This document shows positions 1-22,195 of a DNA stretch of 41,514 bases, piece by piece. Each line of letters begins with the position of its first letter. Position 1 is the first letter of the stretch. The notes below the pieces were generated by a model. That model was given only the letters and a program-made list of their open reading frames with translations. It did no database searches and had not been told where the DNA came from. This DNA is from a virus (taxonomy: Duplodnaviria; Heunggongvirae; Uroviricota; Caudoviricetes), in IMG/VR virus record IMGVR_UViG_2690316276_000005, one strand, 5' to 3'. Made by a program: the position numbers and the translations under genes.

Positions 1-776
1 ACCTCGGTTTACGAGAACTCGGCACAAGCGGGGAGAAAATACCGTTACTCAGTACAGCGAATACCTGGACTAATCGACAAACATTCAGCGGTGGCCTTTC
101 TGGTGAACTATCCGGCAATGCTTCTACAGCTGCAAAATTAAAAACTGCCAGGAAAATAAGCAATGTGGCTTTTGATGGTTCCTCCGATATCACATTAAAA
201 GCAAGTCATGTTGGTGCGTTTGCCTTAGGGAAAACAGGAAGCACCGTTGCGAATGATAAAGCAGTTGGATGGAACTGGAGTAGCGGAGCCTATAACGCAA
301 CTATTAGTGGTGCATCAACGTTAATTATTCATTTTTATATGGGAGAAGGAAGTTGTCCTGCAGCTCAGTTTCGGATTAATTATAAAAATGGCGGTATTTT
401 TTATCGTTCAGCCCGTGATGGTTATGGTTTTGAAGCCGACTGGTCCGAATTTTACACCACCAGAAAACCTTCAGCAGGAGATGTTGGTGCACTGCCGTTA
501 TCTGGTGGTCAACTGAATGGTGCACTGGGTATCGGAACATCCAGTGCTCTTGGCGGTAATTCGATTGTATTGGGTGATAATGACACGGGCTTTAAACAAA
601 AAGGCGATGGTAATCTGGATGTTTATGCTAATAACGTCCATGTTATGCGCTTTGTCTCCGGAAGCATTCAAAGTAATAAAACCATAAATATTACGGGACG
701 TGTTAATCCCTCGGATTACGGTAACTTTGATTCCCGCTATGTGAGAGATGTCAGACTTGGCACACGAGTTGTTTAG
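1..776 (+). CDS. Tail-fibre protein, C-terminal variable region (partial; reading frame is open from the window edge, GTG at 165 is only the ORF-caller start)
   Basis: Frame 0 is open from position 3; translation ...NASTAAKLKTARKISNVAFDGSS... then [18 protein letters not shown], matching the P2 H / lambda Stf C-terminal family. Ends at in-frame TAG 774-776; homology continues in the same frame to 926. Confidence 0.8.
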   Translation, partial: LGLRELGTSGEKIPLLSTANTWTNRQTFSGGLSGELSGNASTAAKLKTARKISNVAFDGSSDITLKASHVGAFALGKTGSTVANDKAVGWNWSSGAYNATISGASTLIIHFYMGEGSCPAAQFRINYKNGGIFYRSARDGYGFEADWSEFYTTRKPSAGDVGALPLSGGQLNGALGIGTSSALGGNSIVLGDNDTGFKQKGDGNLDVYANNVHVMRFVSGSIQSNKTINITGRVNPSDYGNFDSRYVRDVRLGTRVV

Positions 777-928
777 ACCATGAAGAAAGGCGTGATGTAT
801 GAAAAATCAGGCCATGTAATCACGGGGCTTGGTATTATCGGTGAAGTCGATGGTGATGATCCGGCAGTATTCAGACCAATACAAAAGTTAATTAACGGAA
901 CATGGTATAACGTATCGCAGGTATAATC

Positions 929-1344
929 ATGCAGCATTTAAAAAACATTGTCGCAGGTAATCCAAAAACCGTTGAACAATACCAGCTAACAAAGAATTTT
1001 GATGTTATCTGGTTATGGTCCGAAGATGGAAAAAATTGGCATGAGGAATTAAAAAACTTTCAGGAGGATACAATAAAACTGGCTTACACAGTTGAGGGAA
1101 TAATTATTGCTATAGACAAGGATGTATCAGCAATTAATCCAGAAGGTTTAAGTGTCGTTGAGTTGCCTGATATTACAGCAAATCGCCGGGCTGATATTTC
1201 GGGCAACTGGATGTTCAAAGATGGTGCGGTGATAAAGCGAACTTATACCGAGGAAGAGCAAAGGCAACAAGCGGAAAATGAAAAGCAGAGCCTGCTGCAG
1301 CTCGTCAGGGATAAAACCCAGCTGTGGGACTCTCAGCTACAGNN
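929..1344 (+). pseudogene. tfa: Tail-fibre assembly protein (Tfa), 3' end truncated at IS boundary and NN
   Basis: [22 protein letters not shown]... is paralogous to the tfa ORFs at 2878 and 3647-4174. Starts 2 bp after the fibre stop. About 138 codons versus about 175-245 for the paralogs; abuts the IS left end at 1345. Confidence 0.75.
1343..1344. other. Ambiguous bases (NN) at IS left boundary
   Basis: Two N characters directly 5' of the IS terminal TGAGG. Confidence 0.95.
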
Positions 1345-1408
1345 TGAGGTAGCCTGAGTTTAACGGACACTCCTTCCTGAAATAGAATGGCATCAGAAGG
1401 AGCTAATA

Positions 1409-1711
1409 ATGAGCAGAAAAACCCAACGTTACTCTAAAGAGTTCAAAGCCGAAGCTGTCAGAACGGTTCTTGAAAATCAACTTTCGATCAGTGAAGGCGC
1501 TTCCCGATTATCTCTTCCTGAAGGCACTTTAGGACAATGGGTTACCGCCGCCAGAAAAGGGCTCGGTACTCCTGGTTCCCGCACGGTGGCTGAACTGGAA
1601 TCTGAAATTCTGCAACTGCGTAAGGCGTTAAATGAAGCTCGCCTTGAGCGAGATATATTAAAAAAAGCAACAGCGTATTTTGCACAGGAGTCGCTGAAAA
1701 ATACGCGTTAA
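1409..1711 (+). CDS. IS3-family transposase OrfA (HTH / leucine-zipper part)
   Basis: MSRKTQRYSKEFKAEAVRTVLENQ... is typical IS3-family OrfA. Confidence 0.85.
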   Translation: MSRKTQRYSKEFKAEAVRTVLENQLSISEGASRLSLPEGTLGQWVTAARKGLGTPGSRTVAELESEILQLRKALNEARLERDILKKATAYFAQESLKNTR

Positions 1712-1746
1712 TCGAACAATGGCGACAACAATTTCCCATTGAAGCG

Positions 1747-2565
1747 ATGTGTCAGGTATTTGGTGTATCCAGGAGCGGTTATTACAACTGGGTACAGCAT
1801 GAACCCTCAGACAGAAAACAAAGTGATGAGCGGCTAAAACTGGAGATTAAGGTGGCACATATCCGCACTCGCGAAACATATGGAACCCGGCGGCTCCAGA
1901 CGGAGCTGGCAGAGAATGGCATCATCGTTGGTCGTGACCGACTGGCACGTCTTCGTAAGGAGCTAAGGCTACGCTGTAAGCAGAAACGCAAGTTCAGAGC
2001 GACTACGAACTCGAACCACAATCTGCCAGTTGCGCCAAATCTGCTGAACCAGACGTTCGCTCCTACAGCACCAAATCAGGTCTGGGTGGCGGACCTGACG
2101 TATGTTGCCACACAGGAGGGATGGTTGTACCTCGCTGGCATCAAAGATGTTTATACGTGCGAAATTGTCGGCTACGCCATGGGAGAGCGCATGACAAAAG
2201 AGCTGACAGGTAAAGCCCTGTTTATGGCGCTCAGGAGCCAGCGCCCACCTGCCGGGCTAATCCACCACTCTGATCGAGGTTCACAGTACTGCGCATACGA
2301 TTACCGGGTCATACAGGAGCAGTCTGGTCTGAAAACATCAATGTCGCGTAAAGGTAACTGTTACGACAACGCTCCGATGGAAAGCTTCTGGGGAACGCTG
2401 AAAAATGAGAGCCTGAGCCACTATCGTTTTAATAACCGGGATGAAGCCATCTCAGTAATACGGGAATACATTGAGATTTTCTACAATCGTCAGCGTCGTC
2501 ACTCTCGTCTGGGGAATATCTCCCCGGCAGCCTTCAGGGAAAAATATCATCAGATGGCTGCTTAA
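1747..2565 (+). CDS. IS3-family transposase OrfB (DDE catalytic part; normally made as an OrfAB fusion by -1 frameshift)
   Basis: Integrase-core motifs (...WVADLTYV..., HSDRGSQY, ...NRQRRHSRLGNISP) in the frame that is -1 relative to orfA. Confidence 0.85.
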   Translation: MCQVFGVSRSGYYNWVQHEPSDRKQSDERLKLEIKVAHIRTRETYGTRRLQTELAENGIIVGRDRLARLRKELRLRCKQKRKFRATTNSNHNLPVAPNLLNQTFAPTAPNQVWVADLTYVATQEGWLYLAGIKDVYTCEIVGYAMGERMTKELTGKALFMALRSQRPPAGLIHHSDRGSQYCAYDYRVIQEQSGLKTSMSRKGNCYDNAPMESFWGTLKNESLSHYRFNNRDEAISVIREYIEIFYNRQRRHSRLGNISPAAFREKYHQMAA

Positions 2566-2608
2566 AAAAAGAACAAATGGTAGTGTCCGCTATTGCCAGT
2601 ACACCTCA

Positions 2609-2875
2609 GAGTTTTACACCACAACCCGCAAACCCTCTGCGGGAGATGTTGGTGCATATACGCAGGCAGAATGTAACTCAAGGTTTATTACAGGTATTCG
2701 CCTTGGTGGTCTGTTATCTGTTCAGACATGGAATGGTCCCGGATGGTCTGACAGGTCAGGTTATGTTGTTACCGGTTCCGTTAACTCAAACAGAGATGAA
2801 CTAATTGATACAACTCAGGCAAGGCCAATTCAGTATTGCATTAATGGGACGTGGTATAACGCGGGGAGTATTTAA
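2609..2875 (+). pseudogene. Tail-fibre C-terminal variable fragment (5' part missing, begins at IS right end)
   Basis: SEFYTTTRKPSAGDVGA...[16 protein letters not shown] parallels SEFYTTRKPSAGDVGA...INGTWYNV of the other fibres. The N-terminal part of ORF 2471-2875 is IS sequence. Confidence 0.7.
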
Positions 2876-2877
2876 CG

Positions 2878-3618
2878 ATGATGCACTTAAAAAACATTTC
2901 TGCTGGTAATCCTGAAACAAAAGAGCAATACCAGCTAACGAAACAATTTAACATCAAATGGCTTTATACAGAGGATGGGAAAAACTGGTATGAGGAACAA
3001 AAGAACTTTCAGCCTGATACGTTGAAAATGGTCTATGACCACAACGGCGTTATTATTTGTATTGAAAAGGATGTTTCAGCAATTAATCCGGAAGGCGCAA
3101 GCGTCGTTGAGGTTCCTGATATTACAGCAAATCGCCGGGCTGATATTTCGGGCAACTGGATGTTCAAAGATGGTGCGGTGATAAAGCGAACTTATACCGA
3201 GGAAGAGCAAAGGCAACAAGCGGAAAATGAAAAGCAGAGCCTGCTGCAGCTCGTCAGGGATAAAACCCAGCTGTGGGACTCTCAGCTACAGCTGGGCATC
3301 ATTTCNNNNNNNNNNNAGGTTCCTGATATTACAGCAAATCGCCGGGCTGATATTTCAGGTAAATGGATGTTCAAAGATGGCGTAGTGATAAAGCGAACTT
3401 ATACCGGGGAAGAGCAGAGGCAACAAGCGGAAAATGAAAAGCAAAGCCTGCTACAGCTCGTCAGGGATAAAACCCAGCTATGGGACTCACAGCTACGGCT
3501 GGGCATTATTTCCGACGAGAATAAACAAAAATTAACCGAGTGGATGCTCTATGCGCAGAAGGTCGAATCCACAGACACCTCCAGCCTGCCAGTAACGTTT
3601 CCCGAACAACCAGAATGA
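2878..3618 (+). CDS. tfa: Tail-fibre assembly protein (Tfa) with internal tandem duplication around an N-run
   Basis: [22 protein letters not shown]...; the block [60 protein letters not shown] occurs twice, separated by N 3306-3316. Confidence 0.7.
3306..3316. other. Assembly gap (11 N) inside tfa
   Basis: Run of N between two near-identical tandem copies. Confidence 0.95.
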
Positions 3619-3646
3619 AACAAGGCCCGATATCGGGCCTTAATTT

Positions 3647-4174
3647 TTACTCAGGCTTTTGTGGCCATTCTGGCTTTGCCGTATCCACACGGCTGACCAG
3701 AACACTGTAGCGTTCCCATGCTTCCAGTCGTGTGCGTTCCTCGTCTGTTGCCATATTCAGCCTGACAGCGCGTTCCAGCGGCTGGATGACTGATTCAGCT
3801 TCGGAAAGCAATGCGGCCTTTTGTGATTCGGCCTGTTGTTGCTGTTCGTCAGCCGTATAAATCCGTTTAACCACAGCTCCGTCCTTAAACATCCACTTAC
3901 CGGAATCATCAGCACGACGATTAGCTGTAATATCAGGAACCTCAACGACGCTATAACCTTCAGGGTTAAGCGTGGAGGCATCTTTGGTGATGGCGACAAT
4001 AATATTATTTGCATCGTAAACAATCTTTATTGTGTCTGGCTGAAAGTTCTTCACTTCCTCATACCAGTTTTTTCCGTCCTCAGAGTAAAGCCAGATGACT
4101 CCGTGCTTCTTTGTTAACTCATACTGCTCCACTGTTTTAGCATTACCTGCTTTTATGTTCTTTAAGTGCATCAT
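3647..4174 (-). CDS. tfa: Tail-fibre assembly protein (Tfa)
   Basis: [22 protein letters not shown]... paralogous to the plus-strand tfa copies. ATG lies 1 nt after the stf stop. The ORF-track extension to 4207 overlaps stf and is unlikely to be real. Confidence 0.85.
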
Positions 4175-4175
4175 A

Positions 4176-7079
4176 TTAAATACTCGCCACATTATACCAA
4201 GTGCCATTTATATACTTTTGCACTGGCCTGTAATGAACGCCTGCAATATTATCGGCAGAGTTTTTTCCGGTATCCTGTACGTTAATCCCCGTCAGTACAT
4301 AGCCTGACGGGCACTGAAAATTCCATGTTTGCCAGTTGTTCACTCCATAATATTGCTGTGAACCAAGTCGAACATCTTTCACATATCTGGAATCAAAATT
4401 GCCATAGTTGCCGGGAATAACTTGCGAGCCGCAAAGCCAGTTCCCGTTATTATCCATGTACGCCTGACCATCGGTGCCATTGGCTGTCCTTGAGTTATTA
4501 ATCATGTAGATGCCAAATTGCTTATTTCCCAGACCGCCAATCATAAATTTGCGGTCGGCATGGTCCTGACGGAGCAAAGCCTGAGCACCATCAGTGGATA
4601 CCGCATTACGTCCCAAAATAACATTCTGGTCACGCATATGAATCCACATGCCGGTACTACTGTTAATTGCAAAACGGTTTGCAAATATATCCCCTGTAAC
4701 ATCAAGACCATGCCCCATGCTTATCCGGCCAGTTCTGAGATTAAGCGTAAAGGGGCGTAGTGGCCCTATATTACCATTTTCCCCTTCATTCTCTCGTGTA
4801 GGGATGATATGCAGGCATTCTTCAGAACGACGAAAAATGGCACCAAAAGATGAATTAAATATCCTCAGTGCATTGACTGTCGATATTTTCACTTCACTGC
4901 TGAAAAGGGCTTCAACAAGAACAGACAAAGCATTCCATTTAAGATTCATCAGGTCTTTAGGCCGGGTGCCAATGATGCGGTGTCTCCATTTGAAATATTC
5001 ATTGCCGTTGTTGCCTGTTTCAAACCACATGTAGGAATCGGTGTCTGCATCCGAATTATTTTTAAACCCAATCTTTGCCCAGTCAGTATTTCGAATCCAG
5101 GCAAGGATTGAGTCGTTTTCAAAAGTAAGTCCACCGGACAACGTATCGCCATTTTTTTGCACGGCGTTACCAGCCTTGTTTACCGTTTCCTGTAAACCGA
5201 GGTATTCGATAACGGCGGCAACGGTCGATTTCGCAAGAATATCCCGCCCGACTTTTGTCAGGGTTGCCAGGCTGGCGACATCATTCCCCGTAAAATACGG
5301 AAACTTGCCTGCCGCAGTAGTAAGTCCGGCCAGCGCCGTCAGGGTGGCATCTTTCGGTTGCTTACCCGCAAGCGCGTTAGTCATGGTGGTCGCAAAATTC
5401 GGGTCGTTGCCCAGCGCCGCAGCCAGCTCGTTCAGCGTGTTCAGTGCATCAGGTGACGAATCTACAAGGGCGGCAATCGCAGCCATAACGAAAGCCGTGC
5501 TTGCGATTTGGGTATTATTCGTTCCCTGTCGCGCAGTTGGTGTTGTTGGCGTTCCGGTCAGTGCAGGACTATTTAAGGGCGCTTTCTTGTTCGTTTCACC
5601 CATTACCGCCTTAACCGCTTTTGGCGTTGCCGCCAGTGACTCGGAAGTGCTGTTGGTCGCACTGCTGAGCTGTACTATCCCCTTTTTCGTCGTGCTCGCA
5701 TCCTCAAGCGCCACGGCGGATGCAATATCCTCTGCCCGTTTTGCTGCTGTCTCGGCGCGCGTTGCCGCGGATTCAGCAGCAACTTTGCTCTGAGATGCAG
5801 CCGTCGCACTGCCTGCCGCCTCTGATGCTTTCGTTGTTGCTGTCGTGGCACTACCTTTCGCTGCTGACGCTTGTCTGGTCGCCTCATCTTTTGAAGCAGA
5901 CGCAGATGATGCCGATGACGCCGCTGAACTGGCTGACGATGCGGCTGCTGCCTTAGAGGAAGCAGCATTGTCTGCTGAAGTCTTTGCATTTGTTTCAGAG
6001 GTTTTTGCTGCAGAAGCAGACCTCGCTGCTGCAGTGGCTTGCTCAGTGGCTTTGCCAGCCTTCGTTGTGGCTGTTGAAGCGGATGATGCGGCGCTTTCTG
6101 CCGATTTTCCGGCGGCGGTGGCACTGGCTGAGGCCTGCCCGGCACTTGTTGACGCGGCGCTGGCAGACGACGCAGCCGCTGTTTTTGAGCCTGCCGCAGC
6201 TGAGGCACTCTGTCCCGCTGCCGTTTCAGAAGACCTGGCGTTCGTCTCGGACGTTTTGGCCGCCTTCGCAGAATTTGCAGCCGCCGTCGCCGAGGAAGCT
6301 GCGCTACTGGCGCTTGATGATGCGTTCGTTTCTGATGATTTTGCCGCCTCTTTTGAAGCCGACGCATCCCGGGCTGAGGTGGCAGCTTCTGACGCTTTCG
6401 TGGTCGCGGTGGATGCAGAAGTGGCTGCTGATTGTTGTGACGCTGCCGCATTCGTTTCTAACGTTTTCGCCGCACCGGCACTGGTAGCCGCCGCGCTTTT
6501 TGAGGACTCTGCAGCGGCAGCACTTTTTGAGGCTTCAGTGGCCTTTGTTGATGCCGTTCCTGCGCTGGAAGACGCTGACTGAGCCGACGAAGCGGCCTGT
6601 CCGGCTGACGTGCTGGCTGCACGTGCTGAATCTGCAGCATCAGTCGCATGGGTTGCCGCCTCACGGGCTGATGTGCTGGCATCGCTGGCTGATTTCTTCG
6701 CGGCTGCCGTGTTCTGTGCCACCGCGGACGCGTTACGCGCCACCTCTTCCACCATCAGCTCAAAACGGCGCAGTGCCTCCGGACGGGCATCATCCTCCGT
6801 CATGGCACCGAGAAAATCATTCAGCGTACCGGGTCGGGAATCTTCATACACGGTGATGGTCCCGGCATGTGACGGCGGGAATCCTTCCACCAACAGAATA
6901 ACGCTGTACTGACCGTACTCAACGTCCATGCTGTAACGCCCGGCTTCATCCGGATTTTCTGAGGCCAGCGTGTTCACCACCACCGTGGTGCTGTTACGTT
7001 TTGCTTTCAGCTGGATTGTGCAGTTCTGTACCGGTTTTCCTGTGCCGTCTTTCAGTACACCTGAAATCTTTACTGCCAT
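4176..7079 (-). CDS. stf: Side tail fibre protein (lambda Stf-like N-terminus, long Ala/Ser/Thr-rich repeat region, P2 H-like distal part)
   Basis: N-terminus [26 protein letters not shown]... as in lambda Stf; central low-complexity A/S/T repeats; then [33 protein letters not shown]...[10 protein letters not shown]... shared with the P2-H-like fragment at 15804-16594; ends ...[13 protein letters not shown]. True ATG at 7077-7079 (ORF track starts at GTG 7085). Confidence 0.9.
5187..5212. other. Gin/Hin/Cin/Pin-family crossover-like site (imperfect dyad) inside stf
   Basis: TTCCTGTAAACC GA GGTATTCGATAA: two 12-bp imperfectly inverted half-sites around a 2-bp core, resembling the Mu gix site as recalled. 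The reverse complement of window positions 1-17 (TTCTCGTAAACCGAGGT) matches it 15/17. Both lie at the EYLGL codons. Confidence 0.45.
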
Positions 7080-7115
7080 ATTCACCCCACAAAAAAGCCC
7101 GCCTGAACCGGCGGG

Positions 7116-7116
7116 N
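7116..7116. other. Single ambiguous base (N) at contig-like junction
   Basis: N within the hairpin just upstream of the stf start, at the start of an inverted duplication. Confidence 0.95.
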
Positions 7117-7272
7117 TGGTTCAGCGCGTATGCGATGGCGGGTGTGGCTTACAGCCGTGTGTCGACTTTTTCCGGGGATTATATCCGCGTAACTGACAAT
7201 AAGGGGAAAACGCACGATGTGCTGACCGGAAGTGATGACGGTCGCCACAGCAACACGTCTCTGGCGCACTGA
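7117..7272 (+). pseudogene. lom 3' fragment (inverted relative to intact lom)
   Basis: Plus-strand translation WFSAYAMAGVAYSRVSTFSGDYIRVTDNKGKTHDVLTGSDDGRHSNTSLAH matches an internal segment of the intact Lom at 8817-9416 (minus). Confidence 0.6.
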
Positions 7273-7334
7273 CGGTTTCATCGTGGGTGTCGGTTATAAA
7301 TTCTGATTAGCCAGGTAACACAGTGTTATGACAG

Positions 7335-7740
7335 CCCGCCGGTTCAGGCGGGCTTTTTTGTGGGGTGAATATGGCAGTAAAGATTTCAGGTGTACTGAAA
7401 GACGGCACAGGAAAACCGGTACAGAACTGCACAATCCAGCTGAAAGCAAAACGTAACAGCACCACGGTGGTGGTGAACACGCTGGCCTCAGAAAATCCGG
7501 ATGAAGCCGGGCGTTACAGCATGGACGTTGAGTACGGTCAGTACAGCGTTATTCTGTTGGTGGAAGGATTCCCGCCGTCACATGCCGGGACCATCACCGT
7601 GTATGAAGATTCCCGACCCGGTACGCTGAATGATTTTCTCGGTGCCATGACGGAGGATGATGCCCGTCCGGAGGCACTGCGCCGTTTTGAGCTGATGGTG
7701 GAAGAGGTGGCGCGTAACGCGTCCGCGGTGGCACTGGCTG
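7335..7740 (+). repeat. Inverted duplicate of the stf upstream hairpin and first ~123 codons
   Basis: 7335-7367 is the reverse complement of 7085-7115. 7371 onward encodes [10 protein letters not shown]...[11 protein letters not shown], identical to the N-terminus of the minus-strand stf. At about 7740 the sequence switches to a minus-sense stf copy, so ORF 7365-8189 is chimeric. Confidence 0.7.
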
Positions 7741-8665
7741 AGGCCTGCCCGGCACTTGTTGACGCGGCACTGGCAGATAATGCAGCCGCTGTTTTTGAAC
7801 CTGCCGCAGCTGAGGCGCTCTGTCCCGCTGCTGTTTCAGAAGACTTAGCGTTCGTCTCGGACGTTTTTGCCGCCTTCGCGGAATTTCCTGCCGCCGTTGC
7901 CGAGGAAGCTGCACTACTGGCACTTGATGATGCATTCGTTTCTGAAGATTTCGCTGCCTCTTTTGAGGCCGCCGCACCCCGTGCCGAGGTGGCAGCTTCT
8001 GACGCCTTCGTGGTCGCTGTGGATGCAGAAGTGGCTGCCGATTTTTGTGATGCTGCGGCATTCGTTTCTGACGTTTTCGCGGCACTGGCGCTGGTAGCTG
8101 CCGCGCTTTTTGATGACTCTGCAGCAGCACTTTTTGCTGCTTCACGGGCCTTTGTCGATGCCGTTCCTGCGCTGGAAGACGCTGACTGAGCCGACGACGC
8201 GGCCTGTCCGGCTGACGTGCTGGCGGCACGTGCTGAGGCTGCAGCATCGGTTGCATGAGTTGCCGCCTCGCTGGCTGATTTTTTCGCGGCTGCCGTATTC
8301 TGTGCAACCGCGGAGGCGTTACGTGACACCTCTTCCACCATCTGCTCAAAGCGGCGCAGTGCCTCCGGTCGGACATCATCCTCCGTCATGGCACCGAGAA
8401 AATCATTCAGCGTACCTGGTCTGGAACCTTCATAGACGGTAATGGTCCCGGCATGTGAAGGCGGAAAACCTTCAACCAGCAGGGTGACGCTGTACTGACC
8501 ATGCTCAACATCCATGCTGTAACGTCCGGCTTCATCCGGATTTTCAGAGGCCACCGTGTTCACCACCATCGTGCTGCTGGTTCGTCTGGCCTTCAGCACA
8601 ATGGTGCAGTTCTGTACTGGTTTTCCTGTGCCATCTTTAAGCACGCCAGAAATTTTTACTGTCAT
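7740..8665 (-). pseudogene. Second stf 5' copy (about 308 codons, diverged paralog), truncated at the inverted-duplication junction
   Basis: [58 protein letters not shown]... then A/S/T repeats. Roughly 90 percent similar at protein level to the stf N-terminus, with a DNA direct repeat of about 6115-7079. Confidence 0.65.
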
Positions 8666-8816
8666 ACTTTTCCACCAATAAAAAAAGCCCGCAGCAGTGA
8701 CGCCACGGGCTTCAGGACAGTGTAACTTTACGTTTCCTCAAACGCAGTTCACCCCATAAGGTGGATGAACCTGCGTATCATAACAATATTTACAGAAGAT
8801 AAATCGGCGTCTGTTG

Positions 8817-9416
8817 TCAGATACGGTATCCGATACCAACAATAAATGCATCCGTTCGCCAGTCACCACTACCGGAACCTTCATAAGCAAGGTCAATGGT
8901 CACGGATTCGGTCGGGTTAAACTGCACGCCAGCCCCCCACGCCAGAGACGTGTTGCTGTGGCGACCGTCATCACTTCCGGTCAGCACATCGTGCGTTTTC
9001 CCCTTGTTGTCAGTTACGCGGAGATAATCCCCGGAGAAAGTCGACACACGGCTGTAAGCCACACCCACCATCGCATACGCGCTGAACCATTCATTCACGC
9101 GTACAGACGGCCCCGCCATCACGCTGAACCAGCGGTTACGCACGGAATCTTCATGCCAGCGGGTATCGCTGTAGTGCGTTTTTTGCTCATCCTCAGCATT
9201 GGCATAACTGAAGGACGTAATCAGCCCCAGCGCGTCCGTAAACTCATAACGGTATTTCACGTTAATCCCGTTCAGATTATCGCTGCCGGGAGCGTTCGTA
9301 CGGGCATGAAGATACCCCGCGCTCAGTGTGGACTGATGTTCAGACGCCCATGCAGGCGCACCGGATACGGCCAGGCAAATGGCTGCGGACAAAATGGCTG
9401 CACAAACTTTACGCAT
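8817..9416 (-). CDS. lom: Lom-like outer membrane protein (Ail/Lom/OmpX family)
   Basis: Signal peptide MRKVCAAILSAAICLAVSGAPAWA; beta-barrel body ending ...AFIVGIGYRI; sits between J and stf as in lambda. Confidence 0.9.
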   Translation of the reverse strand: MRKVCAAILSAAICLAVSGAPAWASEHQSTLSAGYLHARTNAPGSDNLNGINVKYRYEFTDALGLITSFSYANAEDEQKTHYSDTRWHEDSVRNRWFSVMAGPSVRVNEWFSAYAMVGVAYSRVSTFSGDYLRVTDNKGKTHDVLTGSDDGRHSNTSLAWGAGVQFNPTESVTIDLAYEGSGSGDWRTDAFIVGIGYRI

Positions 9417-9440
9417 AATTACCTCTCGCTTTTCTGCAAT

Positions 9441-9464
9441 AAAAAAGGCGCCATTTCTGGCGCC
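9441..9464 (-). terminator. Rho-independent terminator-like hairpin downstream of J
   Basis: On the minus strand GGCGCC-AGAAAT-GGCGCC followed by a T-run; lies between J stop and lom start. Confidence 0.5.
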
Positions 9465-9483
9465 CGTATATGGGTTATAAAAT

Positions 9484-12400
9484 TCAGCTGATACTGATGC
9501 CTGCGGTGGCTTTCTTCATCACCACAACCAGCAAATCGCTGATACTTGCTGTGGGATACCAGTTATTCACCAGCCATGCTGACACCGAAAACTCCAGCGT
9601 CATGTGGCCGCGACCAGCTGGCATATCAATAACACCACTGTAAATCAGCGTATTATCCAGCGCGGTACGGTTATAAATTTCAGCACCGTTTTTCCGTACT
9701 ATCAGGCGGCATGACGAATAAATATCGTTATTCTCCCGCTCATGTTTAGCGCCGCTGAATGCCACCGCCGGAATAACAATTTGCCTGTCAAAAGGCTGAT
9801 CGTCATAAATCCTGACGGTAATGGTCCCTGATGGCCACCGCTCCGGTGCCCGGGAGTCCCGCGGAAAAGCCTTACCCACTGTTTTGACTATATCGCCTTC
9901 AATCTGGTTGGCTGACAGTTTCCCCTTAATCTGACAGTTCTCATTAATTGTGACATTGTTGAGCGTCCCGGCGTTCGCATTCACACTGCCACTGATATCT
10001 GCATTTTTAGCGGTCAGTTTTCCGTCCGGTGTCAGGGAAAATGCCGGAGGATTACCGCCGCTGGTAATGGTGGGAGCCGTCAGGCGTTTCAGGAACACGT
10101 CGTTCATGAATATCTGATCGCCCTGACCAACAAACATCGGCTTTGTGTTGCCATTCGCAGGATTAATCATCGCAATCCTGTCTGCCGCCAGCAGCACCTG
10201 ACTCTGCATTCCTGCTGGCGTATTCTCAATACCGGCACCGATACCCGCAATATAAAGGCGTCCGTCCTTCATCTGTTGCAGCTTCACAGCCCACATGCTG
10301 TTCAGATTATTATTTGTATCAACCTGAACCTTCTGTATCTGCTGGATTGCCGCACTCTGGTCTTTCAGTTTCTTATTGACAGTCTGCGTGATTTCATTGC
10401 TGACATCCGTAATGGACGTCCTGATTTCAGCCAGGTCAGGCGCAAGCTGACCGTTATCAATCTGCGTCCACAGCTCCTGAGCCAGATGTGTTTTCCCTAT
10501 CTCTCCTTTGAAAAAATCCAAGTAACCTTCCGCATCATCGCTCGCCCGACCGACAGCCTCCACGAATGCCGATTTGCCAACGGTGTTCACACTGCGAACG
10601 TAAAAATAATAATCATGGCCCGGTTTGATATTGATACTGGCGGCTATCCAGTACAGCGCCGTGCCAAGATAGCGTGCTGTGGTTTCAACCTGCCTGATAT
10701 CCGCAATCCGCTTTTCCGAGAACCAGAACTCAAACTGTACCGTCGGGTCATAAACGGCAAGATGCGGCGTTGCGGTTATCTGAAAATAGCCCGGCGTCAG
10801 CTCAATCCGCGACAGCGCTGCCGGTGCGGCAATCCGGAACGATACCGACGCCGGATCGCCCTGCTGCCCCCACGCATTTACTGCCCGGACTGTCAGCCTG
10901 TAGTTCCCCAGCGCCAGTTGTGTGAAGCGGTAAGTGGTTTCCGTCGTCCGGGCCGTGCTGACCAGCCGCTCACTGCCGTCATCCGCTGTTACGGTCAGAC
11001 GGAGCAGGAAGCTCACGCCCTTCACCACCTTCGGCGTGTCCCAGCGCGCCAGCACCTGATATTCCCCGCTGTCTGCGGTGACTTCGGCAGTCAGGTGCTG
11101 CACCGCTGGCGGCGTGACACCATTCACCGTGCCGCTCTGGTCGCCGTCAAAGTGCGCCCCGTTATCCACGATGGCTTCTTTTTCCGGCACATGCTGCACG
11201 GCGGTGATGGCATACGTGCCGTCGTCGTTCTCACGGATACTCACGCAGCGGAACAATCGCTGGTGCAGCGTCGGCAGCTTCAGCCCCCACACGCTGTATT
11301 CAGCAACACCGTCAGGAACACGGCTCACTTTTACCTTCACGCCGTCGGTGACGGACTGGACCTCCACGCTGACCGGATTCCCCTGCCCGTCAACCAGGCT
11401 TATCAGCGTGGTGCCGGAGGATGGCAGCGTGATTTCACGGTCGAGCGTCAGCGTCCGGGTCTGGCTGTTCACCGCCAGCACGCGCCCGCCGGTGCGGATA
11501 CCGGCATAGTCATCATCGCAGATTTCAATGACATCGCCCGGTACATGACGAAGCCCTTCAGCACCCACGCTGAAATCCACGGTCTGCGTCTCCAGCAGTT
11601 CCGTTTTAATCAGCCACAGCCCGGCGCGGTGTGCCTGCCCCCGGCTGGTACAGCCAAAGGCATCCATCTTCGTGACGTTACGACCGTAACGGACAATGGC
11701 CTGCGTATCCTCCACAAGCTCTGTCGCCGTCTCCCAGCCGTTATCCGGGTCAATCCAGTTCACCTCAACGGCATTATGGCGGTCTTTCAGGGCGCTGAAA
11801 CTGTAGCGGAACGGCGCGCCATCATCCGGCATCACCACATTACTGCGGTTATAGGCCCACACCTTATCCGACTGTCGGTCCTGCACGAACGTCAGCGTCT
11901 GCCCGTTCCATACCGGCATACAGCGCATCGCCGAGCAGAAATCACTGAGCACATCCCACGCCTTGCGCTGTGTGGTCAGCCAGGCATTACAGGTGATGCG
12001 CGGCTCCGTGCTGCCAAAGCCGTCCGGCACCGACTGGTCACAGTACTGGCCGATGACATACAGCGCCCATTTATCCACATCTGCCGCACCAAGACGTTTC
12101 CCCATGCCATAGCGCGGATGGGTCAGCATATCCCACAGACACCAGGCCATGTTGTTGCTGTATGCCGGTTTTAACGTTCCGTCCCAGATACCGCTGTATT
12201 GCCGCGTCTGCGGATTATAGTTCGACGGCACCTGCAGAATGCGCCCGCGAAGATGATAATTACGGCTCACCTGCTGGCTGCCGAACTGCTCCGAATCCAC
12301 CTGTACGCCGACCAGTGCCGTGTTCGGGTAGCACTGTTTCACATCGATGATTTCGGTGTATGACGACCAGAGCGTTTTGTTCTGCAGCTGGTCTGTGGTG

Positions 12401-12963
12401 CTGTCCGGCGTCATTCTGCGCATCCGGATATTAAACGGGCGCGGCGGCAGGTTATCCACCACCACCGAGGCCAGATACTGCGAGGTGGTTTTGCCCTTAA
12501 TGGTGATGTCTTTTTCCGTCACCCAGCCACCGTTACGCTGTATCTGAACCAGCAGGCGAACTTCAGACGGATTCCTGTCTCCCTTTGAGGTGGTTTCCAC
12601 CAGTGCCTGTACACCGAAGGTAAAACGCAGTCGGTCAATGTTTGCCGACGTGATGGTCCGGGTGATCGGCGTGTCATATTTCACTTCCGTACCCAGCACC
12701 GTCTCGGAGCCGGAGGATTCAAATCCCTCCGGCGGTGACTGCTCCTGCTCACCTGCCCGGAACACCACCGTGACGCCGGAGATGTTGGTATTCCCCTCAC
12801 TGTCCAGCACCGGCGTACTGTTCAGCAGCACGCTTTTTAATCCATCCACCGGACCTTCAACCGGCCCTTCGCTGATGGCATCGATCACACTCAGCAGCTG
12901 CGTGGACTTCAGGTTGTCCTTCGCTTCGCGCGGGGTATGCCCCTTACTGCTGCCTTTACCCAT
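9484..12963 (-). CDS. J: Tail tip / host specificity protein J (central tail fibre)
   Basis: 1159 aa; [54 protein letters not shown]... is collinear with lambda J as recalled. Confidence 0.95.
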
Positions 12964-13023
12964 TCGTCATGCTCCATAAACGATAAAACCGCCCGGAGGC
13001 GATTTCACATAAAACATTTTGCA

Positions 13024-13695
13024 TCAGCGACCAATCACCACAACCTGACCACCGTCCCCTTCGTCTGCCGTGCTGATCTCCTGAGATACCACACGTGACC
13101 CCACGCGCATTTCACCATACAGAACAGGCATAACATTGCCCTGGGCAACCATGTTATCCAGTGAGGAGAAATAGATGTTCTGCTTACCGTTATCCGTTGT
13201 CTGTGTGCGGGGAGTTCTGGCTTTCGGTGCCAGCATCTGAGCCACACCGCCGAGCACCATACTGGCACCGAGAGAAAACAGAATGCCGGTCATACCACCG
13301 GCACCAATGGCAGCCCCCCATGCTGCAAGGGTGGCTCCGGCGGTAAAGAATGATCCGGCAATGGCGGCTGCTCCCAGGACAATCTGGAATACACCACCTG
13401 ACTTGGCCCCGGCGACTCTGGGAACAATATGAATCACAGCGCCGTCAGGCAGAGCCTCATGTAACTGCGCCGTTAATCCGGACGTGCTAACATCCTGCCC
13501 GGCAATACGCACCTGATACCAGCCGTCGCTCAGCTTCTGACGAAACGCAGGGAGCTGTGTGGCCATCGCCCGGATGGCTTCGGCACCCGTTTTCACACGA
13601 AGGTCGATGCGGCGGCCAAATCGTTGCAAATCCCCGTAAAGGCAGATGCGTGCCATGCCCGGTGACGCCAGAGGGAGTGTGTGCGTCGCTGCCAT
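13024..13695 (-). CDS. I: Tail assembly protein I
   Basis: 223 aa, MAATHTLPLASPGMARICLYGDLQRFGRRIDLRVKTGAEAIRAM... resembles lambda I; position after K. Confidence 0.88.
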   Translation of the reverse strand: MAATHTLPLASPGMARICLYGDLQRFGRRIDLRVKTGAEAIRAMATQLPAFRQKLSDGWYQVRIAGQDVSTSGLTAQLHEALPDGAVIHIVPRVAGAKSGGVFQIVLGAAAIAGSFFTAGATLAAWGAAIGAGGMTGILFSLGASMVLGGVAQMLAPKARTPRTQTTDNGKQNIYFSSLDNMVAQGNVMPVLYGEMRVGSRVVSQEISTADEGDGGQVVVIGR

Positions 13696-14336
13696 TTGTC
13701 GGTATACCTCTCTCGTTTGCTCAGTTGTTCAGGAATATGGTGCAGCAGCTCGCCGTCACCACAGTAAATGGCGGCATGATTCGGCACCGATGAACCAAAA
13801 CAGCACAGCAGCACATCGCCCGGCTGCGCCGCTGACAACGGCACCTGATACAGCCCTGTGGCCTCCAGATTATCCAGATAGAGATTCTGACCGTGACGCC
13901 ACCAGTCATCCTCACGATGAAAATCCGGCATCTCAATCCCCGCCAGATGGTAAGCATCCCGGAACAGCGTGTAACAGTCCGTCACCCCGTGCTCAAAGCG
14001 CCGCCCGGTAAGATGTGGCACACAGCGGAACTTGTGAATCGCCCCCCGGCAGACCAGCCACCACGGCAAATCACTCTGCACCTGCAGCCGCCGGTCGGCC
14101 TCACTCAGCCAGGGCAGACCACCGGGGTGGCTGTGGACCAGTGCCACAATCTCACCCTGCATCTCTGCCTGCAGCCAGTCTTCCGGCGACATACGGAAAT
14201 ACGCCTCCGGCTCACCGGAGATATTCACGCAGGGGAAATATCTTTCCCCCTCCGGCGTTCTTACCACGAAGCCGCACGACTCCGCTGGAGCACATCGCCG
14301 GGCGTGCGCCAGAATCGCTGATTCTGTCTCTGTCAT
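13593..14336 (-). CDS. K: Tail assembly protein K (MPN/JAB plus NlpC/P60 domains)
   Basis: MTETESAILAHARRCAPAESCGFVV...HSHPGG (JAB motif) ...DCYTLFRDAYH (NlpC/P60 Cys). The ORF as drawn overlaps I by about 100 bp; the true 3' end is uncertain. Confidence 0.85.
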   Translation of the reverse strand: MTETESAILAHARRCAPAESCGFVVRTPEGERYFPCVNISGEPEAYFRMSPEDWLQAEMQGEIVALVHSHPGGLPWLSEADRRLQVQSDLPWWLVCRGAIHKFRCVPHLTGRRFEHGVTDCYTLFRDAYHLAGIEMPDFHREDDWWRHGQNLYLDNLEATGLYQVPLSAAQPGDVLLCCFGSSVPNHAAIYCGDGELLHHIPEQLSKRERYTDKWQRRTHSLWRHRAWHASAFTGICNDLAAASTFV

Positions 14337-14341
14337 GGGAT

Positions 14342-15040
14342 TTACTGCGAAAGTTTGTTAATGGAAAGGAAGCCGCCAAAGTTGCCGACGTTATTGCGAA
14401 ACTTACAGCCACTCAGGCATTTGCTGCATTTATCCTTCGTGATGTCGGACGTTGGCTGGTCATATTCATCCGCGACCGCCGGACCGTGATAACCGCACTC
14501 ATCGCCGCGATAGGTCCAGGTGCAGGTGTTGGCCAGCATGATACGTCCCGGAAAAACAGCGCCATCTGTTTCCGTCGGCGTGGACAGTACAAAAGAGGCA
14601 CTCACCGCGCTCAGTTCGCTGCACTGCTCAATGCGCCAGCGGCTGATCACCTCCTGCTCCGGATCGGCGTCACTGTTTCCGTTGACGAAGTTCACCGCAT
14701 CCAGAAAACGGGCGTAAACCTTACGCCGGACCACCGTTCCGCCGACCAGACTCTGTAGATCTTCCGCCATCCCGGTGACCATACCGTACAGGTTAGAAAC
14801 CATCAGCGTGGGGCGCGTACTGGTGCCTTTGCCATTCAGTTCAAAACCACTCCCCTGAATGGGATACGGCTGATACTGTCGCCCCTGCCAGGTGACCGGC
14901 TCACCTTTTTCGTTCTGCTCATTACAGAAAAAATAACGTTCTCCACCGACCTCTGTCAGATCGATTTCCCAGAGCACCACGCTGGCCGACTGCTCCGCAC
15001 GGGTGCATTCATTCAGTGTTTCCTGCCGGATATCCTGCAT
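14342..15040 (-). CDS. L: Minor tail protein L
   Basis: 232 aa, MQDIRQETLNECTRAEQSASVVLWEIDLTEVGGERYFFCNEQNEKGEPVTWQGRQY... lambda L-like. Confidence 0.9.
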   Translation of the reverse strand: MQDIRQETLNECTRAEQSASVVLWEIDLTEVGGERYFFCNEQNEKGEPVTWQGRQYQPYPIQGSGFELNGKGTSTRPTLMVSNLYGMVTGMAEDLQSLVGGTVVRRKVYARFLDAVNFVNGNSDADPEQEVISRWRIEQCSELSAVSASFVLSTPTETDGAVFPGRIMLANTCTWTYRGDECGYHGPAVADEYDQPTSDITKDKCSKCLSGCKFRNNVGNFGGFLSINKLSQ

Positions 15041-15792: not shown

Positions 15793-15803
15793 NNNNNNNN
15801 NNN
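15793..15803. other. Assembly gap (11 N) joining lambda-like and P2-like modules
   Basis: N-run; the flanking sequence on the P2 side (15804-16080) is a near copy of stf 5421-5700. Confidence 0.95.
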
Positions 15804-16594
15804 GCCAGCTCGTTCAGTGTGTTCAGTGCATCAGGCGAAGAGTCTACAAGTGCGGCAATCGCAGCCATAACGAAAGCCGTGCTTGCGATTTGGGTATTAT
15901 TCGTTCCCTGTCGCGCAGTTGGTGTTGTTGGCGTTCCGGTCAGTGCCGGGCTGTTTAATGGGGCTTTCTTGTTCGTTTCATCCATTACTGCCTTAACGGC
16001 TTTTGGTGTCGCTGCCAGCGTTTCAGACGTGCTGTTGGTGGCGTTGCTGAGCTGGACAAGGCCTTTTGCGGTCAGCGAGGCGTCCGGGTGACGTCGTGAC
16101 TGTTCATGCTCTTTCAGTTTGTCATCCACGTAATTCACTGTGGCCATCACCATGGTGTTATCCACGGTAAGCGCCACAGTGGCAGTGCTGGATACGGTCA
16201 GAATGGTGCGAAATGTTTGTGCACGTCCGGATCCTTCGGCAACGGTTGGCTTGTAACTTTCGGCAGTATTGCCTACCGCGATCAAATCGCCGTGCTCATC
16301 AAACACACCAATTTCCCGGATCCAGAATCCGCCCGTTTCAGGAGGAATAACCAGCTCCGCAATAATGTGGTTCTGATGTGTTGCGTCCAGGGTGACGCGA
16401 TTAACGGTATGTCGCCACACCTCATGCACAAGACGGGTCTGCTTACTGTCTGGCGTGGGTAAAGTACCGCCGCCGTCACCCACGGCCATATGTGTCAGGC
16501 GGACAGGTTTCCCATCTGGCGCGGTTGCCTGCGCTAATTTTTTTGCACCCGTATCGGTGATAATGGTTTTAAATTTTCGTGTTGTGGTACTCAT
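15804..16594 (-). pseudogene. P2 H-like tail fibre, N-terminal portion only (cut by the N gap)
   Basis: MSTTTRKFKTIITDTGAKKLAQATAPDGKPVRLTHMAVGDGGG...ELVIPPETGGFW...YVDDKLKEHEQSRRHPDASLTAKG...[11 protein letters not shown] then gap. Directly follows baseplate gene I as in P2. The tail of ORF 15605-16594 beyond the gap is an out-of-frame reading of H. Confidence 0.75.
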
Positions 16595-16596
16595 GC

Positions 16597-17160
16597 TTAA
16601 TCGTCCGGATAAATGGTAATGACTTCACCGTCGTAAGTTGCTGCTGCCGCGAAAATATCTCCCTGAATCTCCTGAATGATATTCAGCCCTGTCATGTGGC
16701 GGCTGACCGGGCGGGCATCAGCAATCAACCGCTCCATTTCCAGATACATTTCCTCCGTCACGCCACTGTCCAGCGTGCCAACATCAATCTTGAATGTTCC
16801 GGGTTCGCCGTTGAACTCCCACCACTCAGACACGCGAATGAGGTATCCCAGCGGCTCAATGGCCCGTCGCAGGGCGCTGATGGTTCCTTTGTGTCGGTGT
16901 ATCAGCCATGCATCACGAATCACCTGTCGCTTTGTCTCTTCCGGCCAGTTGCGATCCCAGCGGTCAACGGAAAACGCCCAGGCGAGATAAGGCAGCAGAT
17001 GCACCGGGCAGGTGTCCGGCGACCACAGCGTGTTGAGGTCTGCCGGAATGTCTGTAATGCGTGTTCCGACGGCTTCGGCACAACGCATGAAATTGCTGGC
17101 TGATGGTGGTAACAGTGAATTACTCATTACGCCCACCTTCGCTGATGGTGAATGACTCAC
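16597..17160 (-). CDS. Baseplate assembly protein (P2 gpI-like)
   Basis: ...LWSPDTCPVHLLPYLAWAFSVDRWDRNWPEETKRQVIRDAWLIHRHKGTISALRRAIEPLGYLIRVSEWWE... resembles P2 gpI. Confidence 0.85.
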   Translation of the reverse strand: MSHSPSAKVGVMSNSLLPPSASNFMRCAEAVGTRITDIPADLNTLWSPDTCPVHLLPYLAWAFSVDRWDRNWPEETKRQVIRDAWLIHRHKGTISALRRAIEPLGYLIRVSEWWEFNGEPGTFKIDVGTLDSGVTEEMYLEMERLIADARPVSRHMTGLNIIQEIQGDIFAAAATYDGEVITIYPDD

Positions 17161-18016
17161 AGCGCGCCGCCTGTATGTCGCTGATGGCCATATTCTGTGT
17201 GGGTTCGATTATCTCCACGCGTTGCACACCGTGCACATGCAGTGCGGCAGCAATGGCGGACAACGCCACGTCCTGACCGATAAGCCCCTGCTCAGCCAGC
17301 CACTTCCTGAACGACGATTCAGCCGCAGCCAGAATAGGTTCGGATTCCGGACCGGGGTAAAAGTACAGTTTTGCATTCAGCCGCCATGTCACGATTCTGG
17401 CACTCTGTACGGTCAGGCGGTCGGCCACCGGGCGGGTATCCTCTGCATTCAGAACGGCGCGAACGGTATTAAGCAACGCCTCCGTTGCTGTGCCGTCGCC
17501 CTCAGTGGACAGGATGGAAACCGTCACATTTGCCGGAGACGGACTGATGGCCCGCGCATCGCGCACCAGACCGCTGGCGCTGCGGGCAAAATACTCGTAT
17601 GCGCCTGACGGGCCTGCAACACTCAGGCCGTCATACGCCCGCTGCGCCCGCAGTCTCAGCGAGGTGTCGTTCTCCATCACCACGTCGGTGGTATCCGTTG
17701 CCGGAGTGATAACCAGGCGCTTTGTGTTCATATTGCCCGCGAGGTTGTCCAGGTCTGTTCCGGCGCTGTGGCTCAACATGCAGGCGCGTGCGGCCTCATT
17801 GACCCGCTGGCGTAACAGCATTTCACGAAACGACATGGTTTGAGCGATAACGTTCAGGGGTTCCGATTCCAGTTCCAGTGCGGCGGAGACGACTTCACGC
17901 TGTTCGGCGGGATAAGCTGCAATCATCATGGCCTTTGTGTCAGCCAGAATTGCCTCAAAGTCAGGCTCCGCGATGATGGCGGGTTCCGGTAACTGGGAAA
18001 GGTCAACGGCAGGCAT
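17120..18016 (-). CDS. Baseplate assembly protein (P2 gpJ-like)
   Basis: 298 aa; ...RVNEAARACML...RPVADRLTVQSARIV...PGPESEPILAAA...LHVHGVQRVEI; P2 order W-J-I. Confidence 0.85.
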   Translation of the reverse strand: MPAVDLSQLPEPAIIAEPDFEAILADTKAMMIAAYPAEQREVVSAALELESEPLNVIAQTMSFREMLLRQRVNEAARACMLSHSAGTDLDNLAGNMNTKRLVITPATDTTDVVMENDTSLRLRAQRAYDGLSVAGPSGAYEYFARSASGLVRDARAISPSPANVTVSILSTEGDGTATEALLNTVRAVLNAEDTRPVADRLTVQSARIVTWRLNAKLYFYPGPESEPILAAAESSFRKWLAEQGLIGQDVALSAIAAALHVHGVQRVEIIEPTQNMAISDIQAARCESFTISEGGRNE

Positions 18017-18019
18017 GAT

Positions 18020-18370
18020 TTACTCCCTCAGCGTGATGGTTAATTCAACATTCTGCATGGTCTGCATGACAGTGCCCGACAGCGTCACCCCGGCGTGGCC
18101 TCCTGCCTTCCAGACAACGTCGATGGCGTTCAGGGCAATGCGTGGTTCCCATCGTGTCAGTGCAATCACGGTAGCACTCATGCATTGCAGACGCGTGGTG
18201 TTATTCATGGGTTCGTCAATCAAATCAGGCACAAGGCTGCCATATTCCCGTCGCATAACCCGGCTTGCCAGCGGGGTGGTCAGGATGTCCCTGACTGACT
18301 GTTTCAGGTGCGCCATATCGTTCAGGTTTCCCGTCCCGTCCGGGTTCATTCCTGTGTAGCGGGTTGTCAC
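18020..18370 (-). CDS. Baseplate wedge protein (P2 gpW-like, GPW/gp25 family)
   Basis: 116 aa; ...ILTTPLASRVMRREYGSLVPDLIDEP...; position between V and J. Confidence 0.8.
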   Translation of the reverse strand: MTTRYTGMNPDGTGNLNDMAHLKQSVRDILTTPLASRVMRREYGSLVPDLIDEPMNNTTRLQCMSATVIALTRWEPRIALNAIDVVWKAGGHAGVTLSGTVMQTMQNVELTITLRE

Positions 18371-18948
18371 TGCGGGCCTCCTGTCGAATCGCTGCCACCT
18401 TTAACGCCACCGTGCTTATGCGTATGCACTGTGATGCCGTTTGAGGTGAAATCGCCGCCGCTGTGCGTGATATTGCCGCTCATCGTTCCCCCTTTTGTGA
18501 CGTCAAGCGTCGCTGTTCTCAGAAGGTCTGTGCATTCCACGACAGGCGTGTTCAGTGTCACGCTGATGGATGCCTGCAAAGTGGCCGTTTTCATGCCGCT
18601 TGCGCTCAGTGCGCCTGCGTCCGCGTCGTAGCGGAACACCGCGCCGTCCGGCGCGCTGACCACGATTTCTTTCAGGCTTTTGCCGGGTGCCGGAATGGCA
18701 TCACTCCACAGGCTGCCGATTATCATGGCGGTTTCCGGGTTGCCGCCGATGCAGGCAATTGCCACCTGTTCGCCTGGTGATGGCGGAAACCACACGTTGA
18801 AGTCTCCCGCGCGCGTGGTGTTCCAGCGCAGCCAGCCTGTTTCCAGTTCGCCGCTGCGAACGCGCACGCACCAGGATTCCTCATCAACTTCAGAGATGAT
18901 CCCGGTGCGGATGATATTGCTCAGCAGTCGCATGAGTTCTGCGCTCAT
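18367..18948 (-). CDS. Baseplate spike / tail spike protein (P2 gpV-like)
   Basis: 193 aa; ...WFPPSPGEQVAIACIGGNPETAMIIGSL...TKGGTMSGNITHSGGDFTSNGITVHTHKHGGVKGGSDSTGGP, a gpV-type C-terminus. Confidence 0.8.
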   Translation of the reverse strand: MSAELMRLLSNIIRTGIISEVDEESWCVRVRSGELETGWLRWNTTRAGDFNVWFPPSPGEQVAIACIGGNPETAMIIGSLWSDAIPAPGKSLKEIVVSAPDGAVFRYDADAGALSASGMKTATLQASISVTLNTPVVECTDLLRTATLDVTKGGTMSGNITHSGGDFTSNGITVHTHKHGGVKGGSDSTGGPQ

Positions 18949-20585: not shown

Positions 20586-20670
20586 GACTGGCCTCCGGTG
20601 TCACGTAAGCACCATGCACGAAAATCAGTACGACGGTTAACCAGTCCCTGTGAGCGTTCGCCGCCGCTGT

Positions 20671-22103: not shown

Positions 22104-22195
22104 TCCTGAAAAAATCGGGCGGTGGGTGCGCGGTGTAAACGGTCACGGAGCCAAACCGGAACACCGCGCACGCCGCCCGCTGACGGGGTCAGTCG

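Follow-up and report, generated by a model that had tools for sequence, protein, structure and literature searches.

Can a row of three tail-fibre cassettes in a virus record be taken as one invertible host-range segment, in which a serine invertase swaps one fibre C-terminus for another? The question is raised by the left end of IMG/VR record IMGVR_UViG_2690316276_000005, a stretch of 41,514 nucleotides from a virus of the Caudoviricetes (the whole of which is called the window below), where a tail-fibre gene (stf) and its tfa gene converge with two further sets of fibre ends and tfa genes on the opposite strand. Fibre switches of the Gin/Pin type are textbook matter in Mu, P1, e14 and P2-like prophages, and an earlier note on this DNA had read the region as a single segment of this kind, with the invertase expected just upstream of position 1. 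Our answer is that positions 1–7100 are very probably a short-read scaffold threaded through three paralogous tail-fibre loci of Shigella sonnei, which holds parts of two Gin/Pin-type segments. The region belongs to the Gin/Cin/Pin family in kind and nothing in it departs from known systems; since the apparent three-cassette switch would be stitched together from three loci, the biology would be ordinary and the assembly misleading.

Three fibre cassettes in one scaffold

The window corresponds in its entirety to contig CXBB01000028.1 (41,514 bp) of assembly GCA_001254295.1. Because pieces of it are 100% identical to closed S. sonnei genomes, including that of strain 53G (HE616528.1; PMC5447701), S. 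sonnei is almost certainly its source. Runs of N stand at four places (two at 1343–1344, eleven at 3306–3316, one at 7116 and eleven at 15793–15803), so that the contig is a scaffold of at least five pieces (C1 to C5), presumably put together in the style of Velvet, SSPACE and GapFiller. In the proposed course of events, mis-threading of the assembly graph together with gap-filling across fibre paralogues would have made the region, with 1–1342 drawn from the segment of one locus (Locus T) and 2609–5304 from that of another (Locus P). The mis-threading was judged against closed genomes of other strains.

When read from the left, the plus strand opens with a truncated crossover site (1–17), made up of three nucleotides of the outer half-site (ACC), the central TC (GA on the opposite strand) and the inner half GGTTTACGAGAA. 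The site runs into a variable fibre C-terminal cassette of Locus T, Sv-1* (3–926; PF12604, gp37_C), which an in-frame TAG at 774–776 splits into open reading frames (ORFs) of 203 and 48 aa, and then come the first 138 codons of tfa-1 (929–1342; PF02413, Caudo_TAP), a gene of 177 aa when intact in the closed genomes and cut here by the scaffold join, not by the insertion element described next. The same 48-aa tail ORF, or TAG-split Sv-1, occurs in more than 2,200 collection blocks; Sv-1 is thus a pseudogene fixed across S. sonnei, and the cassette nonetheless flips. After the NN join (1343–1344) follows IS600, an insertion sequence (IS) of the IS3 family and a multi-copy repeat (1345–2608, plus strand, 1264 bp; orfA 1409–1711, orfB 1747–2565). 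It lies between the two plus-strand sets and cuts short the fibre fragment of the second, the silent cassette Sv'-2, of which the last 88 codons remain (2609–2875, plus strand; 100% identical to Escherichia coli FDAARGOS_943 and the S. sonnei P2-like prophage), its 5' part and its crossover site being missing from the contig. The accompanying tfa-2 is divided by the gap at 3306–3316 into a chimeric 5' part (2878–3305, plus strand) and a 3' part of the P2-like type (3317–3618, plus strand).

A spacer of 28 bp (3619–3646), bearing the bidirectional terminator-like hairpin AAGGCCCGATATCGGGCCTT, separates tfa-2 from the convergent 175-aa tfa gene (tfa175; 3647–4174, minus strand; Caudo_TAP E value 2.5e-37), the cognate of the fibre end now attached to the constant part. 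That end, Sv(P2) (4176–5186, minus strand), shows three mismatches in about 2 kb to gene H of the FDAARGOS_943 P2-like prophage. Next to it stands a complete 26-bp gix-like crossover site, TTCCTGTAAACCGAGGTATTCGATAA (5187–5212), lying within the stf ORF at the codons ..IEYLGLQE.., and beyond the site the 'constant' part of the 967-aa stf (5213–7085, minus strand). The full ORF (7085/7079–4176, minus strand) carries the phage_tail_N domain (PF08400). Each variable end is followed by its own Caudo_TAP gene (929–1342, 2878–3304, 3647–4174), and the sets converge over the terminator spacer.

Much of what the earlier note had described is therefore present: the minus-strand ORFs of stf (7079–4176) and tfa (4174–3647), the tail-to-tail spacer of 28 bp, the second fibre C-terminus with tfa at the left end (1–1342), and the motif INGTWYN at all three fibre ends, whose interiors differ. 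Its plus-strand tfa at 2878–3618 holds as to its start and the preceding fibre fragment (2609–2875); the length of 246 aa does not, as relatives encode 177 aa. The note had missed IS600 at 1345–2608, the TAG at 774–776 and the 11-N gap inside the '246-aa tfa'.

Three loci in closed genomes and a mosaic stf

In the closed genomes the pieces of the region lie at three loci. Locus T is a lambdoid remnant adjoining trp (53G, L010), with the order J, lom, stf-B (918 aa; constant part, site and Sv), tfa, the convergent tfa-1 (177 aa) with Sv-1*, a second crossover site, a Resolvase stub of 60 aa (the remains of pin) and a methyltransferase gene. Positions 1–1342 are 100% identical to its cassette (L007, L010 and L014 at 9222–10563), where tfa-1 is intact and has no IS directly after it. 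Locus P is a prophage of the P2-like kind, which also fills the window from 15804 to about 35600; there I, H (constant part, site and Sv) and tfa175 are followed by the convergent tfa-2 with Sv'-2, a second site, a gene for a 195-aa protein with Resolvase and HTH_7 domains, and gpU. Positions 2606–3149 and 3317–5304 match it with 99.85–100% identity and 15804–28858 with 99.83%, and the exact tfa175 protein was found in such a prophage, with the 195-aa Resolvase+HTH_7 gene adjoining gpU, in 10 of the 10 places shown. Locus L is another lambdoid prophage of 53G (L028), which reads H, M, L, K, I, J (1165 aa), lom, stf (1027 aa) and tfa; the stf 5' end and lom 3' end of this locus recur with 100% identity at 6054–7115 and 7117–7734.

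Against these loci, what the earlier note had taken for one expressed stf turns out to be a mosaic of all three, each part being about 100% identical to a separate locus. Positions 7115–6054 are Locus L (100%), 6158–5218 are stf-B of Locus T (three mismatches in 1 kb; 99.7–100%), and from 5304 downwards the sequence is Locus P (100%), with switch zones of 105 bp and 87 bp that are identical in both parents. The complementary pieces lie elsewhere in the scaffold. The 5' part of stf-B stands in C4 (8692–7725, minus strand; 100% to L010 13057–14032) and stops at L010 13057, the very position at which stf takes up its T-type part (window 6115), and in closed genomes it is contiguous with window 6114–5161. 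Likewise, 263 N-terminal codons of H, the P2-like fibre gene (15804–16594, minus strand; 100% identity to the P2-like prophage), stand in C5 and halt at 15804, one base short of a difference between the T and P types; in closed genomes, for instance L021, they are contiguous with window 5304 and below. An exact-protein look-up of the 967-aa stf, as of the 1159-aa J described below, returned only CXBB01000028.1, so that such look-ups give no independent context; unlike stf, the flanking cassettes are carried by hundreds to thousands of collection blocks. When 5,426 complete E. coli genomes were scanned, none covered at least 80% of 1–5300 and none reproduced the structure of 5213–9500.

These observations bear first on the reading proposed by the earlier note, namely one real 5.2-kb segment with three cassettes behind a lambdoid stf, bounded by sites at 1–17 and 5187–5212 and served by an intact pin/gin gene upstream of position 1. 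The scaffold itself speaks for it in that two inverted sites bracket 1–5212 and all cassettes are of the right kind, and multi-cassette systems are known, such as Min of p15B. Three N joins fall inside the supposed segment, however, its middle cassette has no site, and the stf in front of it is a mosaic unique to this contig. Moreover, in all closed S. sonnei genomes examined cassette 1 stands at one chromosomal locus and cassettes 2 and 3 at another, and to the left of cassette 1 these genomes have either a resolvase stub of 60 aa or, in the flipped state, the constant part of stf-B, rather than the intact invertase that had been expected. The earlier note had allowed that its leftmost fibre might prove to belong to another prophage, and this is essentially what is found (Locus T). 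A single segment is accordingly so improbable that it deserves hardly any credence; the Gin/Cin/Pin kind survives, by virtue of the sites, the convergent fibre-and-tfa sets and the two orientations seen in relatives, whereas the single layout does not, its parts belonging to separate loci.

A narrower alternative is that the mosaic stf is a true recombinant, born from homologous or Gin-mediated exchange between fibre loci, and that only 1–1342 and the placement of IS600 are wrong. Lambdoid and P2-like prophages do visibly share fibre modules: 1–491 is 99% identical to the silent cassette of a P2-like prophage in E. coli EC14, and 1–1340 is 99.1% identical to the expressed end of a lambdoid stf in NCTC86. 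Furthermore, the breakpoint at 5218–5304 adjoins the crossover site. A true exchange sits badly, though, with the finding that the parents' complementary leftovers are in the same scaffold and end at the switch or within about 120 bp of it (15804), and that the protein is in no other assembly, as well as with switch zones (87 and 105 bp) that are about as long as the reads or longer, the read length of the project being something we take not to exceed them. This makes a recombinant stf improbable. Still less probable is it that the scaffold is correct throughout and that IS600 together with Gin-mediated or homologous exchange fused the lambdoid and P2-like segments in this isolate; if that were true, a lambdoid stf would express a P2-type receptor-binding end, and cassettes would re-assort between prophages through shared gix-like sites.

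Several points nevertheless weigh against a mis-threaded scaffold. The mis-threading is inferred from the closed genomes of other strains rather than from the isolate's own reads, and natural gene conversion among fibre paralogues would give the same 100% segments with breakpoints in shared stretches. The junction between IS600 and Sv'-2 at 2608/2609, which lies within a contig piece, was found neither in any of the closed genomes examined nor in the species-representative genomes scanned, so that the isolate does differ from its references. Finally, the fork at position 1 that is discussed below could arise if the isolate had a further copy of the Sv-1 5' end that escaped detection.

Other joins in the scaffold show comparable features. 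The 246-aa tfa crosses the 11-N gap, on either side of which the flanks overlap by 196 bp at 93% identity, and in relatives the real gene has 534 bp and encodes 177 aa; by this comparison, the longer product is an overlap artefact. The end of C2 changes from tfa-2 to tfa-1 within a shared run of 35 bp, as positions 2878–3149 are 100% P2-like and 3115–3305 are 100% of the tfa-1 type. Separately, the 1159-aa J (9484–12963, minus strand) is a hybrid, with a C-terminal part (to about 10839) that is 99.7% identical to Locus T and an N-terminal part (from about 9923) that is 99.1% identical to Locus L. A perfect inverted repeat of 403 bp (6716–7118 and 7332–7734), both arms of which are Locus L of 53G, looks like an assembly fold-back and not like biology; here 7117–7734, consisting of the lom 3' and stf 5' ends of Locus L on the opposite strand, meets the truncated stf-B 5' fragment (7725–8692) at 7734/7735 by way of a 10-bp overlap. 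Across the gap at 15793–15803, the last 140 codons of a lambda-type tape-measure gene directly meet the middle of gene H of the P2-like prophage; two unrelated prophages are scaffolded together there, and their adjacency is putative. Further along the P2-like prophage, 29735–30694 and neighbouring ORFs bear ParM and plasmid-partition family annotations in the near-identical copy of E. coli FDAARGOS_943 (L005, 22611–23886), and such partition-type genes are unusual cargo for an integrated P2-like prophage.

Crossover sites, invertase and inversion in relatives

The site at 5187–5212 matches the native Mu gix core CTGTAAACCGAGGTTTTGGA (PMC5175349) at 18 of 20 positions. It occurs once in the window, where no match is expected by chance, and even with mismatches allowed there are only two crossover sites, the complete one and the inverted partner at 1–17, of which the inner half, the core and three further nucleotides remain and the rest is lost at the contig start. 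The two bracket 1–5212 in inverted orientation and map to different loci in closed genomes. Both stand at the boundary between the constant and variable parts of a fibre gene, the first in frame within stf, the second opening into a cassette ORF that is in frame from position 3.

In each segment, a Gin-like serine invertase would pair the two inverted 26-bp sites, cut at the central GA, rotate and rejoin, so that a flip of about 3 kb would give the constant N-terminal part of the fibre the alternative receptor-binding C-terminus, followed downstream by the tfa chaperone that belongs to it. For Gin itself, dimers bound to two inverted sites are activated by Fis and an enhancer, the central dinucleotide is cut, and the strands are religated after a rotation of 180 degrees (PMC3575834). 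As the earlier note had stated, the window holds no invertase gene: no resolvase-type ORF was found in its 41.5 kb by tblastn (best E value 0.78). The 195-aa recombinase of the closed P2-like prophages, the gene for which is intact and adjoins gpU, matches Mu Gin (PDB 4m6f/3uj3; E value 4e-101), with residues 1–113 and the catalytic domain nearly identical and a DNA-binding domain that differs. By this likeness it would be the catalyst, and since the pin gene of Locus T is a 60-aa stub, inversion there would need catalysis in trans, which the same Gin-like protein may provide. A precedent is found in E. coli K-12, where PinQ, PinR and PinE act on the P segment of e14, including action in trans on the segment of another prophage (PMC12529663).

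Inversion itself can be read from the closed genomes. At Locus P, Sv(P2) and tfa175 are joined to H in 5 loci and Sv'-2 and tfa-2 in 6; at Locus T, L014 has the opposite orientation to L010, L012 and L015 (about 9200–12150). The exchange always falls within the shared TAAACC-GA-GGT core, at both loci, and gives alternative fibres of 678/656 aa and 918/875 aa.

It might be argued that the cassettes are inert relics, that inversion has ceased in S. sonnei and that the break at position 1 is a mere repeat effect. The nonsense codon of Sv-1 and the stub of pin at Locus T are in keeping with decay, as are the closed genomes, several in number, that have IS600 in tfa-2 and in one crossover site, and the many genomes in which stf-B is truncated by IS600 and its site lost. 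Against this, the P2-like segment differs in orientation between L021 and L019/L023 in spite of shared IS600 insertions, Locus T has flipped with exchange in the site core, and the 195-aa invertase is intact. Inertness is thus unlikely, although it retains somewhat more plausibility than the alternatives treated above.

The shared insertions merit description in their own right. Several closed P2-like prophage loci, those of S. sonnei genomes among them, have IS600 in the outer half-site of the recombinase-proximal site, with a 3-bp GTT target duplication (L018 and L021, about 12038–13400 and 13305–14665; L019, L023 and L024, about 7630–9010). The disrupted site reads TTCCTGTAAACC, GA, GGTT and, past the junction, TGAGGTGT; its complete hybrid sequence is TTCCTGTAAACCGAGGTTTGAGGTGT, the hybrid half-site GGTTTGAGGTGT retains 8 of 12 positions, and the insertion puts the hybrid site about 1.3 kb farther from the invertase gene. 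Genomes that share this identical insertion have the segment in either orientation (L021 versus L019/L023), so inversion would have gone on through the half-IS600 site; on this comparison, Gin-type inversion apparently persisted through it. A second IS600 lies within tfa-2 in L019, L021 and L023 (about 10688–11951), with a CAC duplication at the equivalent of window positions 3488–3490, where piece C3 of the window is uninterrupted.

The same kind of reasoning can be applied to the contig start. In relatives, the outer half of the site reads GGT followed by ATTCGATAA on the fibre constant side and GGT followed by TTTAGATAA on the recombinase side, the full outer half-sites being GGTATTCGATAA and GGTTTTAGATAA, respectively, and Sv-1 has the inner flank ..CTCGGCACAAGCGG..TTCTCGTAAACCGAGGT. 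Position 1 is the last base common to both outer flanks (GGT); the next would be A in the constant part or T at the pin stub. The contig may thus open at the crossover point owing to reads with one or the other outer flank, and the simplest reading, on circumstantial grounds, is that the isolate's reads held both junction types, that is, that the culture was of mixed orientation. That the break stems from another copy of the Sv-1 5' end elsewhere in the genome is disfavoured, since this end is single-copy in each closed genome. In most short-read assemblies the Sv-1 cassette sits on contigs of 2–5 kb.

As to the IS600 of the window, its identity is clear from HTH_Tnp_1 and rve Pfam matches, termini TGAGGT.../...ACCTCA and 99.9% identity to an annotated 'IS3-like element IS600 family transposase'. 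No target duplication is visible around it because its flanks are unrelated genes. An insertion in tfa-1 was considered and rejected on three grounds: tfa-1 is intact in all closed genomes, the second piece carries tfa-1 sequence 14 nt beyond the supposed insertion point, and the tfa-2::IS600 junction of closed genomes is 8 bp off the equivalent position. The junction at 2608/2609 could be a simple insertion, with a GAG duplication, or an adjacent deletion. A simple insertion would have left a flank reading ..GACTGGTCAGAG and then TGAGGTAGCC, and the site may survive on another contig; if instead about 690 bp next to IS600 were deleted by comparison with L021, the loss would include the recombinase-proximal site and leave the segment frozen. 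Since IS600 abuts Sv'-2, the middle cassette lacks a crossover site in the window, and the P2-like segment of the isolate may, for want of a second site, be locked in the state in which tfa175 is expressed. Piece C3 joins Sv(P2) to a constant-side half-site, which places tfa175 in the expressed position at Locus P.

Relation to known switches and consequences

The two segments can be compared with several known switches. With the G segment of Mu and Gin they share inverted sites of 26 bp, an in-gene position of the boundary and two convergent Sv and tfa cassettes (S/U-like); unlike Mu, the carriers are a P2-like prophage (with H/G genes) and a lambdoid remnant, and the window is without an invertase gene. 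The P segment of e14 with PinE resembles them in being part of a defective lambdoid prophage that reads stf, tfa, convergent tfa and stf', then pin, and in that inversion makes chimeric fibre genes and both orientations occur among sequenced genomes (PMC12529663). It differs in its repeats, TTGGTTTGGGAGAAGG, whereas Locus T has a pin reduced to a 60-aa stub and one cassette that is a nonsense pseudogene. Tominaga et al. (J Bacteriol, 1991) reportedly described an invertible B segment and the genes pinB, pinD and pinF in S. boydii, S. dysenteriae and S. flexneri; the likeness to the present loci lies in invertases of the Pin family and in invertible segments for fibres on the chromosome of Shigella. 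The Min multiple-inversion system of p15B has six crossover sites, one per cassette; its more than two fibre C-terminal cassettes per region give it a superficial likeness to the scaffold, in which there are two sites only and the extra cassette comes from another locus. A multi-inversion system like Min or a shufflon was rejected for this region, given the two sites only and a middle cassette that begins at the end of IS600. The three-cassette layout behind a lambdoid stf is, in all likelihood, a product of assembly.

Closed genomes contain the S. sonnei loci, and annotation of their recombinase and fibre genes is available from E. coli relatives. What the region illustrates is that paralogue stretches identical over 87–105 bp, a multi-copy IS600 and invertible DNA can together give rise to fused genes and a wrong order of genes when short reads are scaffolded, the 967-aa stf, the 1159-aa J and the 246-aa tfa being examples of such chimeric products. 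Host-range or prophage typing by annotation of such contigs would be wrong. A noteworthy by-product, for the family of Gin/Pin-type switches, is that inversion apparently continued through a crossover site altered by IS600, in which the outer 8 bp are replaced, and at a locus whose pin is a stub.

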